Below are positions 17,421-30,096 of a stretch of 31,860 nucleotides of DNA, one piece after another (position 1 is the stretch's first letter; each line of letters opens with the position of its first letter). The position numbers and the translations under genes were made by a program. Source of the DNA: a virus (lineage: Duplodnaviria; Heunggongvirae; Uroviricota; Caudoviricetes); the IMG/VR virus record IMGVR_UViG_2778261226_000007; one strand, given 5' to 3'. The notes under the pieces were generated by a model. That model ran no database searches. It was not told the DNA's origin and saw nothing but the letters and a program-made list of their open reading frames with translations.

Positions 17421-17909
17421 TTAAAACCGTTCCAGAGTGCATACCATCGCATCGGCGGGTAGTTTTTCCGTGAAGTCGACCTGACCGTGTTTATCGAAGT
17501 GGATCAGTAATGCGCATCCATCATTTTGGGTTGGGGTGTTTTGTGCTGCTGGTGGTTGTTTTTGGCTGAAATAACAGTCTTCCAGTTTTTCGAACACTTC
17601 CCACGCCTGATCGGTTTCCAGCATTTTGGCGTGACGGGCTGCTCCGCGTTCTGTCCAGAGGATGAGGTGCTTTGTACGCGGTGCAACTAAGTTACTTTGA
17701 GTAACCTTGTTCTTAAATTCCCGCAACTCAGCCCCTTCCAATTTGAAGTAGTGTTTCCCACAAACAAAACGCTCGGCATTGCGTGTATAGTTCACTTTGA
17801 TGTTATTAGTTTCGGTGCCATAAAGTTGTGCCAAAAGCTCGGTAGTAATGACAGGGATTTGGTTATGGGTGATCGGGGAAAGAGTTTCAACTGAGATTTG
17901 AATAGCCAT
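17421..17909 (-). CDS. ORF6N-domain protein (antirepressor-like)
   Basis: N-terminal block (...NYTRNAERFVCGKHYFKLEG...LILWTERGAARHAKML...) is clearly paralogous to the N-terminus of the 24402..25256 protein. Confidence 0.7.
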   Translation of the reverse strand: MAIQISVETLSPITHNQIPVITTELLAQLYGTETNNIKVNYTRNAERFVCGKHYFKLEGAELREFKNKVTQSNLVAPRTKHLILWTERGAARHAKMLETDQAWEVFEKLEDCYFSQKQPPAAQNTPTQNDGCALLIHFDKHGQVDFTEKLPADAMVCTLERF

Positions 17910-18182
17910 AGGATGATCCTTTTTCTATGTGAATCATCACCACTGCTGACGCCAATCAGTATGGTGGTGAACTGTGCAGGGTTGGCGTAACCGGGAAAAA
18001 GGAACCGGCGCGGATCGCTCCGCCCCCACACAGCCCACCATTGAGATGTGACAGTGCAAACGACAATAAAAAAGACGCTGGCGCGTCTGTTGTCGCCTTT
18101 TTCATCCGGGACGCCAATCCCGACGCCAGATTTTGCTGGCGCGTGAGGAATATAGCCCCGGACAATGTGTCTGGTCAAGCTC
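17910..18182 (-). promoter_or_regulatory. Leader module C: promoter, short terminated transcript and structured region upstream of the ORF6N gene, directly after Q
   Basis: Minus strand has TTGACC (18178-18173), an 18-nt spacer and TATATT (18154-18149); a hairpin plus U6 (gacgcgccagcgtcTTTTTT, 18066-18087); and a GCGA tetraloop hairpin (18010-18023). Homologous at nucleotide level to modules A and B. Confidence 0.55.
18067..18141 (-). ncRNA. Candidate short leader RNA C (~75 nt, promoter to intrinsic terminator)
   Basis: Inferred from the promoter and terminator positions; predicted internal hairpins (gccag/cuggc, cggga/ucccg). Start and end are approximate. Confidence 0.35.
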
Positions 18183-18578
18183 CTACATGATTCGTTCTAC
18201 GTATCTGTCCATCTCCAGTCGGATATCAAGCATCATCAACATGCCATCAATAACCCCTTCCGCTTTCTGCAGGCGCTTGCCAATACAGGTATCCGAACAC
18301 CCATGCTTTCGTGCCAACCCCATAAAAGTCATTCCACCTACGTAATAATCCACCAACAAATCGTGCAAATCCTGATTTTTCTTGTTCAACCGGGCCATAC
18401 AGCCACAAATTATCATTGCATCATCATCAGAACACTGAGGGCGTGATTTCACTTTCGGCGGGATTAATCCTTTAAAACCAGCAGCGATTGACGCCCATGA
18501 CACATCTTCGTGATTGTTCGCAGCCCATGATCCCCACCGCTCCATAACCTGCTGAATATCACGCACCATCGTTATCAC
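18183..18578 (-). CDS. Late-gene antitermination protein Q family
   Basis: 131 aa, Cys-containing, in the lambdoid position after RusA and before the late region. Assignment by recalled similarity to Q-family proteins. Confidence 0.65.
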
Positions 18579-21460: not shown

Positions 21461-22453
21461 TCAGAATGTCAGTTTGTCACTGGATTTACCGAATTTGTCA
21501 GACATGGCTCCCAGGCCAGCCAGGACATCGACCTGTCGCTGTCGCCCACCTCCGGGAGCGGCTGGCTGTTGCCAAGATTCGTCAAAGTGCCGATCGGGGC
21601 CAAAGAACGTCGCAGCCTGCTTCACGAACTGTGTGCCGGTATTTCCTGTAGCACGTACCCAGGCTGCATACCGCCTTACGCCATTAAGCATGGTCTCCGG
21701 TTTTATTCCCTCCCTGATACGAGCTTTCCAGGCTTTGAAGGCTGCTGACTTGGAATTACCACCAGCACGTTTGGGATATTCCTGCCAGGCCTGTTCAAAT
21801 TCCGGTGAATATTCCTGTCGGGCAGAACGCGCTGGTGCAGACGCGTCAGCGGATGCGCCAATAGTGTTTTTAGTCTCCGTTGTAATCTCTGTAGTAATCT
21901 CTGTATTTGTATCAACATTCGGCGTATCCCCTGTTCCGTTATGACGTTGGGGGGTGTTCCGTTTTAACGTAATAGCTGTATCGCTGATTGAGTTATTGCT
22001 GTTACTTTCTGGCGAAACAGAAGAAGGTGTGGTGATGGCAGCAATTGCCTGTGGGTTGATCCCGACAAACAAAATATTGCTGCATTTCACCCCGTCTAGC
22101 ATTTCCACCGTACGTAAATCCAGAGTAATAAACCCAGCATCACGAAGACGCTTCAGCGCATCTGCGGTTTCCCTTTTCCCAAAGCCAAACTGTTCAGCAA
22201 ACGCCTGATAGCTTCTTTGCAGCTTGTCACCCTGAAAACGCTTGCGATATCCCAGTAAAGCCCCGGTATGCTCATCCCTGACTTCTGTCGGGCGGTACCA
22301 GTAAACAATCTCTGAAAGCAGCGCAATGGCAGTCGCATCCGGACGACCACTTGGTAGCCGAATATGTTTCCACCAGTTCGCTGGTGTGACATTGCCAGAA
22401 ATATTGAGTTGGCCAATAGCCATAACTTCAGGTGTAGGAGCGTAACGGCTCAC
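21461..22453 (-). CDS. Replication initiation protein (O-like / replisome organiser)
   Basis: Immediately upstream of the loader and helicase genes. Contains an internal tandem repeat (TEITTEITTE) like the ori iterons inside lambda O. Confidence 0.6.
   Translation of the reverse strand: MSRYAPTPEVMAIGQLNISGNVTPANWWKHIRLPSGRPDATAIALLSEIVYWYRPTEVRDEHTGALLGYRKRFQGDKLQRSYQAFAEQFGFGKRETADALKRLRDAGFITLDLRTVEMLDGVKCSNILFVGINPQAIAAITTPSSVSPESNSNNSISDTAITLKRNTPQRHNGTGDTPNVDTNTEITTEITTETKNTIGASADASAPARSARQEYSPEFEQAWQEYPKRAGGNSKSAAFKAWKARIREGIKPETMLNGVRRYAAWVRATGNTGTQFVKQAATFFGPDRHFDESWQQPAAPGGGRQRQVDVLAGLGAMSDKFGKSSDKLTF
21882..21905. repeat. Exact 12-bp tandem direct repeat (gtaatctctgta x2), candidate origin iterons
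   Basis: Read directly: tgtaatctctgtagtaatctctgtatttgtatc inside the initiator gene, with partial copies adjacent. Confidence 0.45.
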
Positions 22454-22674
22454 ACGGCACCTCCCAGACGCTTAAACATTTTTCCAGACAGAAATACCGC
22501 CAGCGGGTAACTGATGGTGTAGCTACGCCCCTGTAGTTCGCACACGACTTTCTGGCTTTCAGCGTTGACTAGGCAACCCCGCAGAACGTGACCGTTGCTG
22601 GTGGCGAACCACTGCCCCACACGGGGGCAACGGTTGTATCGGTGATACAGGGAATTAACGATGCGGCGAATCAT
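22450..22674 (-). CDS. Hypothetical small Cys-containing protein
   Basis: 74-aa ORF whose first ~20 nt (GGAGGCGCACCCATGATTCGC) nearly duplicate the 5' end of leader module B. ATGA-coupled to the initiator gene. Confidence 0.4.
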   Translation of the reverse strand: MIRRIVNSLYHRYNRCPRVGQWFATSNGHVLRGCLVNAESQKVVCELQGRSYTISYPLAVFLSGKMFKRLGGAV

Positions 22675-23222
22675 GGGTGCGCCTCCTTGTCAGAACCATT
22701 AAGTCTGGAATCAACAAGTGCAGCGCCAAAAACAGCATCTCCTACACGGTCATACAGCTTGCTCGCCAGCGGAGATTCAACGGCCTTAAGCATGGGGTAA
22801 AGCTGGCTTTTCCAGATTTGATGGATTTCACGCAAATGCAGGTATACGCCTCTGGCGTTTCGTGCAACAGCTGACATATCAACCGCGTCAGCACCAGATA
22901 AATTCTTCTCCATCTGGTTAAAGGCGTTGATGTATGCCTCTTTGAACCTGGCTGCACGTTTGCCAGTGAAGCCCATGGCAAGAAACGCAAAACCGTCGCG
23001 GGTGATTTGGTAGCAGGGAAGTTTGCGGCCTGATGCGTCGGTGTATTCACTTAACACAAAATTGTGTTCAGTAAATTCAGCGGAACATTCGAGGTTTCGA
23101 ATTCTGTCTAAAACCCGCTCATGCCGTTTAGTAAAGTAATTAGAAACTGCAAGAGATGTGGTGACAACACGACCATTGATAATCGTGATTTCAGGGTGAG
23201 ATTGGGTTGGGAGAGTAGTCAT
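22671..23222 (-). CDS. Rha-family phage regulatory protein (copy B)
   Basis: Start taken at MTTLPTQ. The N-terminal region (...VSNYFTKRHERVLDRIRNL...YQITRDGFAFLAMGFTGKRAARFKEAYINAF) looks like a Rha domain. The ORF-track N-terminal extension is the leader. Confidence 0.65.
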   Translation of the reverse strand: MTTLPTQSHPEITIINGRVVTTSLAVSNYFTKRHERVLDRIRNLECSAEFTEHNFVLSEYTDASGRKLPCYQITRDGFAFLAMGFTGKRAARFKEAYINAFNQMEKNLSGADAVDMSAVARNARGVYLHLREIHQIWKSQLYPMLKAVESPLASKLYDRVGDAVFGAALVDSRLNGSDKEAHP

Positions 23223-23534
23223 GGTGACAGCCCCTATGTTGAATTCAATGAACTCACCACCAAGGCTTTCCACGACCATATAGGTGGTGAGACGTACAGG
23301 GGTGGAAATACCGGTCAACATAGAACCCGGCCCAACCGAAGTTGGCCCTGCACGCCCCACCATAATTTGGGCGTAACGATGCTCATGACACGAAAAAACC
23401 GCATGAGCGCGGTTGTGCTCTATATTGAATTTCGGGTTTCCACGCCCGGCCCCCGCTTTATAAGGTGCAGAGACAGTGTAACGTCCCAAAAGTGCAGAAT
23501 CAATATGTTGGCGAATCATGGGCGCACCTCCCAT
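23223..23534 (-). promoter_or_regulatory. Leader module B: promoter, short terminated transcript and structured region upstream of Rha copy B
   Basis: Minus strand has TTGATT (23503-23498), a 17-nt spacer and TACACT (23480-23475); a hairpin plus U6 (ccgcgctcatgcggTTTTTT, 23393-23412); and a UUCG-loop hairpin (23329-23347). Confidence 0.55.
23393..23468 (-). ncRNA. Candidate short leader RNA B
   Basis: Inferred from promoter and terminator positions; approximate ends. Confidence 0.35.
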
Positions 23535-23877
23535 TGATTACGACGGAAAACAGTGTGATTCAGGTTGGTTTCAGCCTCATGGAATGCTTCAATACAGCTC
23601 TCGTAGTACCGCATTGTGCGCAGACTTAACCCAAGCTGAAGCATCATCAGGCCATCAAGGGTGATGTAATAACCACGCAGGGAATCGCCATACACGTGGT
23701 AAGTACCCGGTATGAAATTACGGGAGAAGAATTCACGCGAGCAGTTCAGATACTCGATTTTGTCGACGATATTCTGGTGCATGCGCTTGAAGTGGCAGGC
23801 AACATGCAGGGAGAAAATAACAGCCTTACCGTTGACGATCTCAATTTTGAGGAATGGGGAAGTTGGGATCGTAGCCA
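23516..23877 (-). CDS. Rha-family phage regulatory protein (copy A)
   Basis: Start taken at MATIPTS. Contains KRMHQNIVDKIEYL...YYITLDGLMMLQLGL, resembling a Rha domain. Its stop is ATGA-overlapped with the start of leader B. Confidence 0.6.
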
Positions 23878-24192
23878 TGATGGCAGCCTCCGTATGCAAT
23901 GGATAACTTCCACCACCGGAAACGCCAATTTCGCTGGTGGTGAACTGAGCAGGGTTGGCGTAACCGGCGCATACGGAAACCGGCGCACCTTTCGGTGCCC
24001 CCACCCAGCCCACCATAATTTGGGTATAGCTGAGTTGTAGCAACAAAAAAGACGCTAACGCGCCAATTGTCGCCGTATGCAATTCCAGGACGCCAATCCC
24101 GGCACCCGCTTTATAAGGTGCTGGAACAGTGTAACGTCCCGAAATTGCAGAATCAATATGTTGGTTGCGGATCATTTTGTACCTACTCGCCG
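23878..24192 (-). promoter_or_regulatory. Leader module A: promoter, short terminated transcript and structured region upstream of Rha copy A
   Basis: Minus strand has TTGATT (24156-24151), a 17-nt spacer and TACACT (24133-24128); a hairpin plus U6 (24044-24064); and a GAAA tetraloop hairpin gcaccGAAAggtgc (23985-23998). Confidence 0.55.
24045..24120 (-). ncRNA. Candidate short leader RNA A
   Basis: Inferred from promoter and terminator positions; approximate ends. Confidence 0.35.
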
Positions 24193-24402
24193 TCAATCCG
24201 CGTTTTCGCGCTGATTCCAGTCATGAACAGCACGTTCTTTCGAATCAGGGATCTGGTTTGCGTTACAGCAAGTACATGCGACGTAATAACCATCATCGCC
24301 ATCCAGAAAATATTTCACCTCAATGAGTTGTACTTCCGGATTTCCGCAGAACGGGCAAGGTTTCAGATCGACATCACCAGTTACACACGTCTTGGTTTGC
24401 AT
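24193..24402 (-). CDS. Lar-family restriction alleviation protein (zinc ribbon)
   Basis: 69 aa with CPFCG...CTCC zinc-ribbon spacing typical of the Lar family found in Rac-type prophages. Confidence 0.65.
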   Translation of the reverse strand: MQTKTCVTGDVDLKPCPFCGNPEVQLIEVKYFLDGDDGYYVACTCCNANQIPDSKERAVHDWNQRENAD

Positions 24403-25256
24403 TATTTGTTCTCCTGTAAAAGATTCGCGAGCTCAGTGTTATGGGTAAACAGCCCATCCCATGTTTTCTTCATCGGTAGTTCACCGTTCAGATAATGGCG
24501 ATATAACCAGGCGGCACCTTTTTTCTTCAGGAGTGGTTTGAAAATCTCGCGCATTTCCCCGTTTTCCTGCTCAACCTGCCCAGAACGCTCAGTCAGGTAT
24601 TGGTCACGTGCATACGCTTTTACACGCCAGCGCGGATACATAGCCTCCGGACGGTCGTCATACAGCCAGTTACGCTCTTCAAGGAACGCATTAATCTGAC
24701 GAGTGTTTACACCGTTGAGTTGTTTGCAGAACTGCACAGGAGTGATGCCATCGGCGAGATGGCTTTCGAGTTTGCTGATGTAGCGAGCCTGACGCTCTGC
24801 ATACCCGAGAGCAAGGCGTTCGGATTTTTTGGCTTCAATCCACGCTTCAGCAGCAGCGATCGGATCGTCAAAGTCTGGAATAGTGTTTGAAGAAGGCGTT
24901 GCTTTACGAAAATACGCCTGCTCCATTTTTTCGAAGAACGACCAGGCCTCGTCTGTATCGACGATTTTTGACATGCGGGCAGCGCCGCGTTCTGTCCAGA
25001 GGACAAGTGATGTTGTATGTTTATTAACCGACTCGCTAAAAGATAGTCGGAAAGATTTCAGCTCATCACCGCTGATTTTGAAAAAGTGTTTACCCTCAAC
25101 GAAACGATCTTCGTTTCGAATGTAGTTCTGTTGTATACGGATTGGCGTTGTTCCATATCCCGCCGCCAACGTTTCGGTGGTAACTACACGTACTCCCTGC
25201 CACTCAATAACTGGCAAGTTTTCAGGGTTGACTAATTTTTGTTTATTGATCATCAT
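24402..25256 (-). CDS. Antirepressor-like protein with N-terminal ORF6N domain and a C-terminal extension (KilA-C-like)
   Basis: The N-terminal ~110 aa is paralogous to the 17421..17909 product. First large gene downstream of cro. Confidence 0.7.
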   Translation of the reverse strand: MMINKQKLVNPENLPVIEWQGVRVVTTETLAAGYGTTPIRIQQNYIRNEDRFVEGKHFFKISGDELKSFRLSFSESVNKHTTSLVLWTERGAARMSKIVDTDEAWSFFEKMEQAYFRKATPSSNTIPDFDDPIAAAEAWIEAKKSERLALGYAERQARYISKLESHLADGITPVQFCKQLNGVNTRQINAFLEERNWLYDDRPEAMYPRWRVKAYARDQYLTERSGQVEQENGEMREIFKPLLKKKGAAWLYRHYLNGELPMKKTWDGLFTHNTELANLLQENK

Positions 25257-25332: not shown

Positions 25333-25632
25333 TCATCGCGTGGACATTTCTGATGAATCACTCTGCCCATCTTCCGTGCGCGCTAGGCTTGGATTTGAAA
25401 TTTTGCGTAACGAATCAGGAATTCCATCTTCAGGGTGAGGATAAAGATCTGGCCTTAAGCCATGTGGCGTGACCTTCCATGCAACTACTTCACATACGCG
25501 TAAAACAAAACGAGCAGGAATTGTGTTTTTTGAAAACCACTGATTCACCGCTTGCGGAGTTACACCAAGGTTTCGTGCAATGGCATTTTGCGCAATTAAT
25601 GCGCGAAGTACGTCGTAATCATTTCCTTTCAT
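25333..25632 (-). CDS. Cro-like HTH regulator
   Basis: Small HTH protein (NAIARNLGVTPQAVNQWFSKNTIPARFVLRV) transcribed divergently from the CI-type repressor. Confidence 0.6.
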   Translation of the reverse strand: MKGNDYDVLRALIAQNAIARNLGVTPQAVNQWFSKNTIPARFVLRVCEVVAWKVTPHGLRPDLYPHPEDGIPDSLRKISNPSLARTEDGQSDSSEMSTR

Positions 25633-25765: not shown

Positions 25766-26455
25766 ATGAAGAACGTCAAAAACACGGAAAATCGAATAGC
25801 CGCGATGCTGAAAGCAAAAGGATGGACTCAGGCTCAACTGGCCCGCAAGTTAGGTGTGAGTGCGCAATCAGTGCAGTACTGGACAACAGGAAAGACATTT
25901 CCACGGAGTGATAAGCTTGCGCAGTTATCAGAGATTAGCGGTTATCCACAATCCTGGTTCTTAGGTGAAGACCCCTCACCGACCTTCTCCTCGCCAGAGA
26001 AACACCAGACAAGAACAGATAGCGTCGTGTTTAATGTCCTTGATGTTGAGTTCAGTTGCGGTGATGGAACTCATGTCCGTGGTGACTTGATAGATGTAGT
26101 GCGCTCAATAGAACTTGATCCTGAATATGCCCGACGTCTTGTTGGAAATCGGGCATTCAAAAATATAGAAATAGGTAACGCCAGAGGAGACAGTATGGCT
26201 CCCACAATCTCACCTGGCGACCTTCTTTTTCTCGATAAGACAGTAACTTATTTTGATGGAGATGGCATTTATGCATTTTGTTTTGATGGAGAATGCTACG
26301 TGAAAAGACTTCAAAAAATTGGAAGCAAAATCATGGTGTTATCTGATAACCCCAATTATCAACCATGGAGCATCGAAAAAGAGGGTTTAGCTCTGCTTTA
26401 TATCCAGTCTAAAGTGATCTCATCTGTACCATTCAATATAAACAGATTTGGTTAG
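25766..26455 (+). CDS. CI-type prophage repressor (HTH plus S24 LexA-like autopeptidase domain)
   Basis: N-terminal HTH (GWTQAQLARKLGVSAQSVQYW); C-terminal domain with the catalytic Ser in GDSMAP and Lys in YVKRL. Confidence 0.85.
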   Translation: MKNVKNTENRIAAMLKAKGWTQAQLARKLGVSAQSVQYWTTGKTFPRSDKLAQLSEISGYPQSWFLGEDPSPTFSSPEKHQTRTDSVVFNVLDVEFSCGDGTHVRGDLIDVVRSIELDPEYARRLVGNRAFKNIEIGNARGDSMAPTISPGDLLFLDKTVTYFDGDGIYAFCFDGECYVKRLQKIGSKIMVLSDNPNYQPWSIEKEGLALLYIQSKVISSVPFNINRFG

Positions 26456-29450: not shown

Positions 29451-29822
29451 ATGAACACCCAGAATACTCAACCGCAAATAATGAACTATGACCCGAATCT
29501 GACGTCATGCGGACGCATGGCAAACCAAACCGTTCGATTAACTTTCGGACTATGGGAATACCGCGAAACATTCGAAGTTACTGTCGGCGGCAATCTGACC
29601 GGACTGGATGTTATCAGTTGCGCTATTGAAAGCCTGTACGCAACGCTGCCTTATGAAGAAGTCAAGGATGAGCGCACAGGGGAAACAGATATCATGGCCA
29701 CCATTAATATTGGCGAACTGATATGTCAGGATGAAGACCTGTCCGGAGAACTCTGGCTTGCCGGGATGCTTATCTCAGCAGAAATTATCAGTATTGAACC
29801 CGCTACAAACATACGGCTCTGA
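29451..29822 (+). CDS. Hypothetical protein
   Basis: AAGGGA RBS before the second ATG; no recognisable motif. Confidence 0.4.
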   Translation: MNTQNTQPQIMNYDPNLTSCGRMANQTVRLTFGLWEYRETFEVTVGGNLTGLDVISCAIESLYATLPYEEVKDERTGETDIMATINIGELICQDEDLSGELWLAGMLISAEIISIEPATNIRL

Positions 29823-29853
29823 AGTTCTCACTATTCAGAGAGCAGGAGAAAAA

Positions 29854-30096
29854 ATGTTTGCTTTGATTAATCAGGGACAACTGTATACCGACAGTGCCGG
29901 TTACCCGGTAAAAATTATTCGCTGCATAAATAACACCGTGTTGTACAGAAGAATGGATGGGCGAACACAATCGGTAAAAATGAACGATTTTAATGAATCG
30001 TTTGAACGGATCGATCACCAGGAATACCGACAAATTCTGGCAGAAACAGAGCAGGAAGCTCATCTGAAAAAATTACGAGCCATGAAAAGGAAGTAG
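29854..30096 (+). CDS. Hypothetical small protein
   Basis: Start taken at MFALINQ with a GGAG RBS. Confidence 0.4.
   Translation: MFALINQGQLYTDSAGYPVKIIRCINNTVLYRRMDGRTQSVKMNDFNESFERIDHQEYRQILAETEQEAHLKKLRAMKRK

Follow-up and report, generated by a model that had tools for sequence, protein, structure and literature searches.

A conserved Shine-Dalgarno/ATGA junction that probably doubles as a module boundary beside the replication genes of a family of Escherichia coli prophages

Introduction

The modular model of Susskind and Botstein and the boundary sequences of lambdoid phages, as both are cited in PMC3029335 (its refs 21 and 22), form the background against which a short sequence recurring at the edges of phage modules has to be read. 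[quoted passage not shown] A second point of reference is the isrK locus of Gifsy-1, in which orf45 and anrP have been found by experiment to be coupled through an AUGA overlap (PMC4825925). In the literature on Stx phages, 'Ash' is treated as a protein domain of unknown function (PMC8951638).

Here we describe a 21-bp junction sequence that occurs twice in a 31,860-nucleotide stretch of DNA from a virus of the Caudoviricetes (IMG/VR record IMGVR_UViG_2778261226_000007); this whole stretch is referred to below as the window. Comparison of the two copies with each other and with related prophages suggests that the 21-mer is a Shine-Dalgarno (SD)/ATGA joint that heads a conserved gene, orf74, travels with orf74 and the replication module behind it, and has been reused as a boundary for the in-register exchange or insertion of modules. 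We put the probability of this reading at roughly 0.78.

Results

The motif lies in the early rightward operon, here encoded on the minus strand, of an E. coli prophage of lambdoid type. A CI-type repressor gene on the plus strand (25766-26455) faces a Cro/YdaS-like gene (25333-25632), and genes for an ORF6N/KilAC antirepressor and for Lar lie at 24402-25256 and 24193-24402, respectively. Past Lar the gene order is leader A and rhaA, leader B and rhaB, orf74, an O/DnaD-like initiator, a DnaC/IstB-like loader and a DnaB-like helicase. The rhaA gene (23516..23878, minus strand) encodes a 120-aa protein with a Rha-family N-terminal domain and matches phrog_995 (1.5e-57) and the Rha-like phrog_518; the 226-aa open reading frame made up of leader A and rhaA (23516-24196) scored 28.7 bits against Pfam Phage_pRha, slightly under the 29.9-bit cutoff. 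The rhaB gene (22671..23222, minus strand) encodes a 183-aa Rha-family regulator (Phage_pRha, E = 3.5e-30; phrog_821; TIGR02681). The first gene of the replication module, encoding the O-like/DnaD-like replication initiation protein, occupies 21461..22453 on the minus strand (phrog_270, E = 3.5e-78).

An exact search of the window for GGAGGYGCRCCCATGATTCGC returned two matches, both on the minus strand, and no further copies at up to three mismatches; about 0.01 chance matches are expected, and none of 100 shuffles reached two. Copy 1 (GGAGGTGCGCCCATGATTCGC, 23511..23531), which begins GGAGGTGCGCCC, holds the last four codons of rhaA (E-V-R-P) and its TGA stop, with GGAGG 7 nt ahead of an ATG at 23519-23517. 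Copy 2 (GGAGGCGCACCCATGATTCGC, 22666..22686), which begins GGAGGCGCACCC, holds the last four codons of rhaB (E-A-H-P) and its TGA stop together with the SD and ATG (22674-22672) of orf74. Both copies are laid out as GGAGG, a 7-nt spacer and ATGA, the TGA being the end of a Rha-family gene and the ATG the start of the next frame. In the frame of the upstream gene they read G GAG GTG CGC CCA TGA (E-V-R-P-stop) or G GAG GCG CAC CCA TGA (E-A-H-P-stop), and in the downstream frame GGAGG and the spacer are followed by ATG ATT CGC (M-I-R). The rhaA stop at 23516-23518 thus lies on the ATG at 23517-23519, and the rhaB stop at 22671-22673 on the ATG of orf74 at 22672-22674. The first-pass annotation had described an ATGA stop/start junction with the upstream gene at two minus-strand sites, 23510-23530 and 22660-22680; the motif and the overlap are present at both sites, displaced from those coordinates by 1 and 6 bases, respectively.

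Leader B and rhaB lie between the two copies, which stand 845 bp apart. They differ by two transitions (19/21 identical), and the next base, C, is also common to both, which extends the agreement to 20 of 22 positions; the 60-nt flanks beyond them are unrelated when global alignments are compared with shuffles (z = -0.35 upstream, -0.76 downstream). A third junction of like style, GGAGGTGCCGTGTGA (22450..22464, minus strand), can be read from the sequence at the far end of orf74, where the TGA stop of that gene overlaps the GTG start of the replication initiator (GTGA). When the motifs were folded locally, no hairpin that would obviously sequester the SD was seen at copy 2, and predicted RNA duplexes between the C4/IsrK RNAs described below and the motif had energies no better than those of non-cognate pairs, a comparison made without a proper control.

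The gene behind copy 2, orf74 (22450..22674, minus strand), is a conserved phage gene of 74 aa that matches phrog_1153 over its full length (E = 4e-40) and has 174 homologues in viral contigs; Pfam and NCBIfam hold no family for it, nor for the 64-aa and 77-aa genes that take its neighbouring positions in relatives. Across 49 distinct alleles of orf74, codon-position entropy is 0.13/0.13/0.42, that is, variability is concentrated in the third position, and pooled pN/pS is 0.19. By the phrog_1153 match, the third-position variability and the low pN/pS, orf74 is a real protein-coding gene under purifying selection. Copy 2 is its native start, and orf74, which travels with the replication module headed by the O-like/DnaD-like initiator, is the native owner of the junction. 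Homology between the N terminus of orf74 (MIRRIVNSLYHRY) and the start of the leader frame (MIRQHIDSALLGRY) was also considered and was rejected, as nucleotide similarity past the 22-mer does not rise above that of shuffles.

Related prophages were searched for the motif at gene boundaries, as the first-pass annotation had proposed. The exact pattern was found in 41 IMG/VR viral contigs and a slightly relaxed form, invariably located at a gene boundary, in many more. A pair of copies with the 845-bp spacing of the window occurred in one of the 41 contigs (L007) and in one complete E. coli chromosome examined (L003), the other contigs having one copy. In most exact-match contigs a rhaA-type 3' end (...CGTAATCAATG GGAGGTGCGCCC ATGATTCGC) leads directly into orf74 (MIRRVVNS...), and in others a rhaB-type 3' end (...GGTTCTGACAA GGAGGCGCACCC) does so. 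When junction loci gathered by orf74 homology in viral contigs were aligned, orf74 was found to be preceded by at least four unrelated ends, namely those of the rhaA type, the rhaB type, a 64-aa gene (MISYEIII...AEVRP*) and a 77-aa gene (MCNNHYSD...QEVRP*).

Breakpoints compared between these relatives coincide with the edges of the motif, which is neither absent from related phages nor randomly placed. Upstream, homology always ends precisely where GGAGG begins: the majority-base frequency is 30-70% ahead of GGAGG, and about 100% in GGAGG and CCATGAT across 36 unique orf74 junction contexts. Downstream, divergence sets in after ATGAT(T/C)CGC for orf74 and the leaders, and after ATGATT for the 64-aa gene. 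Of the 77 unique contexts of the junction found in related viral contigs, those that lead into orf74 come from rhaA (24), the 64-aa gene (13), rhaB (11) and the 77-aa gene (6), and other pairings are rhaB to the 64-aa gene (8), rhaA to a leader (7) and rhaA to the 64-aa gene (5). A rha 3' end with its junction is seen to continue into any one of three partners: orf74 (ATGATTCGC CGC), the 64-aa gene (ATGATTAGT) or an IsrK/C4 leader. The 64-aa gene is flanked on both sides by junction copies, 191 bp apart, and the 77-aa gene of E. coli STEC309 is flanked by GGAGGCGCGTC-ATG and GGAGGTACGTCCATGATTCGC; all of these inserts, that is, the 64-aa gene, the 77-aa gene and the leader-rha cassettes, share the boundary core GGAGG-N5-CC-ATGAT. 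Joints between rhaA and a leader take four distinct forms (ATGATTCGC-CAA, ATGATCCGC-CACCAG, ATGATCCGC-TACCTG and ATGAAGCGC-CACCAG), and leaders have therefore been joined to the junction more than once.

Within the motif, the spacer takes the forms TGCGC, CGCAC, TGCGT, TGCAT, TTCGC, TGTAC and TACGT, mostly single transitions apart, and its changes alter the tail of the upstream protein (R, H, Y or C; EVRP, EAHP, EVHP, EVYP). The C/A spacer variant accompanies rhaB-type upstream genes in 8 of 11 unique contexts. Because GGAGG and CCATGAT are near-invariant while spacer changes alter the protein tail, the constraint acts on the translation signal and not on the tail of the upstream protein. Strict conservation of just the functional positions is also what would be seen if efficient coupled gene pairs had converged on GGAGG-N7-ATGA, with neither shared ancestry nor a part in recombination, and the relaxed pattern GGAGG-N5-CCATGATYCGY does turn up in many unrelated bacteria among the matches listed: a search of 185,579 species genomes, which is uninformative on taxonomic range, gave Hoeflea, Caulobacter and Acidobacteriota among those matches, with about 1100 chance matches estimated for the 596 Gb. 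We nevertheless consider convergence by itself highly improbable. The window copies are alike at 19/21 positions including the spacer and codons 2-3, against a chance expectation of 0.01 matches; across loci, single transitions connect the spacer variants; and the occurrence of an identical 51-nt stretch of rhaA tail plus junction on either orf74 or leader B, to which we return below, is direct evidence of common descent.

Leader module B (23223..23519, minus strand), a 99-codon open frame in frame with rhaB, is not a protein leader but an RNA-regulator cassette with an IsrK-like and a C4-like element (Rfam isrK 57.7 bits, C4 82.4 bits). Its IsrK-like RNA lies at 23392-23468, with a terminator at 23397-23414, and its C4-like antisense RNA at 23280-23367. 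Leader module A (23879..24175, minus strand), likewise of 99 codons and in frame with rhaA, has its IsrK-like element at 24045-24121 and its C4-like element at 23933-24020, and its 5' end, ATGATCCGC (24167-24175), differs by one transition from the ATGATTCGC of the motif. Rfam also places an IsrK-like RNA (18068-18142) and a C4 RNA (17960-18045) in a third module, C, which is preceded by an antitermination-Q gene (18183-18578). The IsrK-like and C4 matches in all three modules exceed the Rfam gathering score, an intrinsic terminator stands at the end of each IsrK-like element, and TTGATT-17 nt-TACACT stands ahead of each; in leader B this is a putative -35 (TTGATT, 23498-23503) and -10 (TACACT, 23475-23480) on the minus strand. 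From position and homology to the Gifsy-1 promoter PisrK (PMC4825925), we infer that TTGATT-17 nt-TACACT is the equivalent of PisrK. A consensus promoter scan did not call the leader promoters, since the element scores 8/12 against a threshold of 9. Copy 1 (23511-23531) lies upstream of the putative -35 of leader B and outside the Rfam matches, so the motif is not part of the C4/IsrK RNAs. Leader B belongs to the C4/IsrK family; the 21-mer does not, and is the seam next to the cassette.

To trace copy 1, an 80-nt probe centred on it was searched against 5426 complete E. coli genomes. The whole tandem joint was found in only 6 of them. In about 70 other E. coli genomes the match to the probe (up to 100% identical) runs through the rhaA tail, stops at window base 23510, so taking in the 21-mer plus C, and gives way to orf74; the annotation there, 'ash family protein / hypothetical protein', corresponds to rhaA directly before orf74. 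Because these genomes match as far as base 23510 and then run into orf74, copy 1 is the ordinary rhaA/orf74 junction, cut after ATGATTCGCC and continued by leader B, and the identical 51-nt rhaA tail plus junction does occur joined to either partner. Elsewhere the leader has a 5' end of its own, ATGATCCGC-AAC-CAA-CATATTG, for example after Lar in module A and in several contigs. The start of orf74 (ATGATTCGCC) and this leader 5' end (ATGATCCGC...), as the candidate crossover partners, have 9-10 bp in common.

The same arrangement could in principle have come about by tandem duplication in situ of a single c4-rha cassette, with the 21-mers marking the boundary of the duplicated unit and diverging later: the architecture is that of a direct repeat, two like cassettes (leader, rha and junction) stand head to tail, and leaders A and B are each 99 codons long. 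The cassettes are not, however, each other's closest relatives. Cassette B (leader B plus rhaB) shares 99-100% identity with its counterparts in three contigs (L013, L037 and L007), and leader A shares 99% with that of another (L012), whereas leaders A and B are only about 91% identical over their first 66 nt and rhaA and rhaB have no nucleotide match within the window. Moreover, A-only, B-only and A+B forms all occur in the same Lar...orf74 backbone, and in most relatives rhaA is joined directly to orf74. Duplication in place, which we rejected on these cassette identities, is thus very unlikely.

Direct repeats around an 845-bp insert might also be the marks of a mobile element, with the 21-mers as its target-site duplication, or they might reflect an operator or recombinase site centred on the near-palindromic GGYGCRCC, given that GGTGCGCC in copy 1, as read from the sequence, is the reverse complement of GGCGCACC in copy 2. 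The palindrome is not conserved, however, as relatives show GGTTCGCC, GGTACGTC, GGTGTACC and GGGGCGTC; the insert codes only for RNA regulators and Rha, with neither a transposase nor a recombinase among its products; and it is the upstream gene, not the insert, with which the repeat variants segregate. We know of no transposon class that a 21-bp target duplication would match. A binding site or element end is scarcely credible, and the operator and target-site readings were both rejected on the unconserved palindrome and the lack of a recombinase.

The ATG of copy 1 opens a 282-codon frame that runs through leader B into rhaB, PGAP annotates exactly that frame as one protein in a relative, and the leader translation has hits to Pfam Ash (PF10554) and several PHROG profiles. 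No stop interrupts this frame in 61 of 61 distinct leaders, and it stays in register with rha, whose ATG lies 279, 282 or 285 nt away, whereas column-resampled leaders are stop-free in only 48% of cases; codon periodicity is absent from the frame (entropy 0.52/0.53/0.52). Stop avoidance lies mainly in the 3' half of the leader, the counterpart of Gifsy-1 orf45, which is here fused in frame to rha, and the 5' half, stop-free in 84% of resamples, is close to expectation. We also considered the ATGA at the leader 5' end as a general stop/start overlap and rejected this, as such an overlap is confined to leaders that follow rha genes or the phiP27 Ant gene; in the commonest non-tandem leader contexts the TGA closes only a 14-23-codon frame, no Shine-Dalgarno sequence stands before the 5' ATG and no upstream gene ends there. 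For copy 1 itself, a hand-off of ribosomes from rhaA into the leader B frame is possible but weakly supported.

Discussion

If the 21-mer is a coupling joint that has been reused as a module boundary, whatever gene adjoins it upstream would take its last four codons and its stop from the joint, and modules that start with ATGAT... and end with ...GGAGG-N5-CC would be exchangeable or insertable there in register. In the window, a cassette of IsrK/C4 leader and rhaB would have been inserted between rhaA and orf74, and a crossover within the 9-10 bp common to the orf74 start and the leader 5' end would have left one copy of the junction on each side of the insert. The first-pass annotation had offered a recombination joint of modular exchange and a shared translational coupling signal as two possible readings of the motif, which has the sequence-level features of both a mosaic boundary linker and an AUGA coupling junction; we take them to be two aspects of one object and not alternatives. 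The former is supported by the breakpoints at the motif edges and by the unrelated partners that abut GGAGG. Coupling is well founded at copy 2, ahead of orf74, and only plausible at copy 1. From the strong SD inside the upstream gene, the optimal spacing, the codon overlap, the real downstream gene and the conserved signal positions, we infer that ribosomes ending rhaB reinitiate on orf74 by standard AUGA coupling.

Because unrelated inserts have the same sequence at both ends and the breakpoints coincide with it, the joints are more likely products of short-homology recombination than of random joining with later selection. Under illegitimate joining, only in-register products that keep coupling would survive, and the motif would be a selected outcome and not a substrate of recombination. 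Such a history would sit well with the length of the shared sequence, 17-22 bp, which falls short of the minimum of approximately 30 bp given for Red-beta recombination (PMC3945230), so that homology-driven exchange there would be inefficient; it would also agree with the finding of no Rad52-like recombinase gene in the scanned part of the window, and with the absence of conserved boundary sequences from most phage mosaic joints (PMC3029335). It does not predict, however, that inserts as unrelated as the 64-aa gene, the 77-aa gene and the leader-rha cassettes should have the same sequence at both ends, and the window crossover falls inside the 9-10 bp identity of the two partners. We therefore judge illegitimate joining unlikely as the explanation, while selection for in-register products probably contributes to the pattern. 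Since the spacer variant tends to stay with the upstream gene, most crossovers may have taken place at the ATG or beyond it, without spanning the entire motif.

A more far-reaching proposal, which we hold tentatively and regard as doubtful, is that the junction is a functional plug-in socket: a portable SD-ATGA linker that would allow in-register insertion of cassettes between antirepressor genes and the replication module and would also, at copy 1, pass ribosomes from rhaA into the RNA-regulator leader, with translation through the IsrK-like terminator and the C4 structure on operon-length (PR) transcripts. If this were so, translation through the leader would prevent termination and polarity on the replication genes, and transcripts from internal promoters would still yield the regulatory RNAs. 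The proposal would explain why the leader is always open and in frame (61/61), why its length varies only by multiples of three and why amino-acid-level constraint is absent, and the 'Ash domain' would then be a translated RNA gene rather than a protein domain.

Returning to the joint as a reused module boundary, the motif is a clean but ordinary case of phage mosaic evolution; the phenomenon is already known, and this is not a new kind of system. In the literature searched, we found no description of this linker or of its recurrence beside rha, orf74 and small accessory genes of E. coli prophages. For short conserved boundary sequences where phage modules join, it offers an example that is well replicated and resolved to the base, and that the boundary is predicted to be a coupling signal as well suggests why exchanges there yield viable operons. 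It also marks the interval from the rha/antirepressor genes to the replication genes as an insertion hot spot in a common E. coli prophage family that includes Stx-phage relatives, and it draws attention to 'ash family protein' and 'Ash domain' annotations that overlie IsrK/C4 RNA genes.

The leader modules themselves have well-described counterparts. Leaders A, B and C match the RNAs of the P1/P7 immI c4-icd-ant system (Rfam C4, RF01695; c4-a1b1, RF03163) and IsrK (RF01394), and precede Rha/ORF6N antirepressor-type genes, so that their architecture is the same as that of P1/P7 immI and of Gifsy-1 isrK-orf45-anrP; module C, furthermore, follows the antitermination-Q gene as Gifsy-1 isrK follows antQ. 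The 21-mer, in contrast, lies outside those RNAs and upstream of the leader promoter. As a coupling junction it resembles Gifsy-1 orf45-anrP in its ATGA overlap, in an SD inside the upstream coding sequence and in its place within the family of IsrK/C4-regulated Rha/antirepressor operons. In Gifsy-1, however, the overlap couples a leader open reading frame to the antirepressor, whereas the junction described here is on the other side, between rha and orf74 or between rha and the next leader; and the Gifsy-1 leader ends in AUGA, whereas the leader frame here is fused in frame to rha. As a boundary, the motif behaves like the linkers of phage mosaics, in that a short sequence recurs at the edges of unrelated modules and breakpoints coincide with it, and, as with Island3 gene 68, the inserted gene ends with the tail of the upstream gene (here EVRP*). 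It differs from those linkers in that it is predicted to be itself an SD plus ATGA translation signal, and in that it is found in at least seven upstream/downstream combinations.

Leader RNA and protein-family annotations

Translating the IsrK-like plus C4-like RNA leader in silico (minus strand; 23223-23519 and 23879-24175 in the window, and the leaders of relatives L001-L124) gives the sequence to which the Pfam 'Ash' domain (PF10554), the N-terminal regions of PHROG 'transcriptional regulator' entries and the PGAP 'ash family protein' calls all correspond. Codon periodicity is absent from the leader (entropy 0.52/0.53/0.52), in contrast to orf74, the 74-aa gene (phrog_1153) upstream of the replication-initiator gene (0.13/0.13/0.42). 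All 61 distinct leader variants, which measure 279, 282 or 285 nt, are nevertheless free of stops and share the reading frame of the Rha-family gene rha; after column resampling of leaders, the stop-free share was only 48%. The leader is an RNA gene that has been mis-annotated or, alternatively, a sequence under selection to be translatable, with no constraint on its amino acids.

In some relatives (L022, L103 and L104, with the leader at ~1264-1711, and L037), the leader frame remains open 300-400 codons upstream, which fuses rha and its RNA leader with a large gene ahead of them into a single ORF of >500 codons. Leaders are also paired with several kinds of downstream gene: other E. coli prophages (H62-H71) carry the same leader type ahead of DUF4222 or Icd-like genes, not rha. 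A DUF4222 gene lies elsewhere in the window (29731-30096, plus strand).

Gene junctions

Within GGYGCRCC, the two differences between junction motif copies 1 and 2 are placed symmetrically, and the copy 1 octamer GGTGCGCC (23520-23527, minus strand), when reverse-complemented, gives exactly the copy 2 octamer GGCGCACC (22675-22682, minus strand). This symmetry is probably a coincidence because it is not kept in relatives. The boundary between orf74 and the replication-initiator gene, GGAGGTGCCGTGTGA (22450-22464, minus strand), is a GTGA overlap that resembles the junction motif, with GGAGGTGC common to both; the same style of coupling joint recurs at three successive cistron boundaries of the operon.

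The slot between rha and orf74 is occupied in relatives by two small accessory genes, one of 64 aa (MISYEIII...; L055, 2298-2505) and one of 77 aa (MCNNHYSD...; L245, 1688-1950). The tail EVRP* is supplied by the junction in both genes, and neither has a family in Pfam or NCBIfam.

A third cassette

Module C, a third IsrK/C4 cassette (17960-18155, minus strand), also matches c4-a1b1. No junction motif occurs at its 5' end, where the promoter, TTGACC-17-TATATT, differs from that of the other leaders. It is flanked by an antitermination-Q gene (18183-18578) and a 162-aa ORF6N protein (17421-17909), and this order of Q gene, module C and ORF6N protein is the same as that of antQ-isrK-anrP in Gifsy-1.
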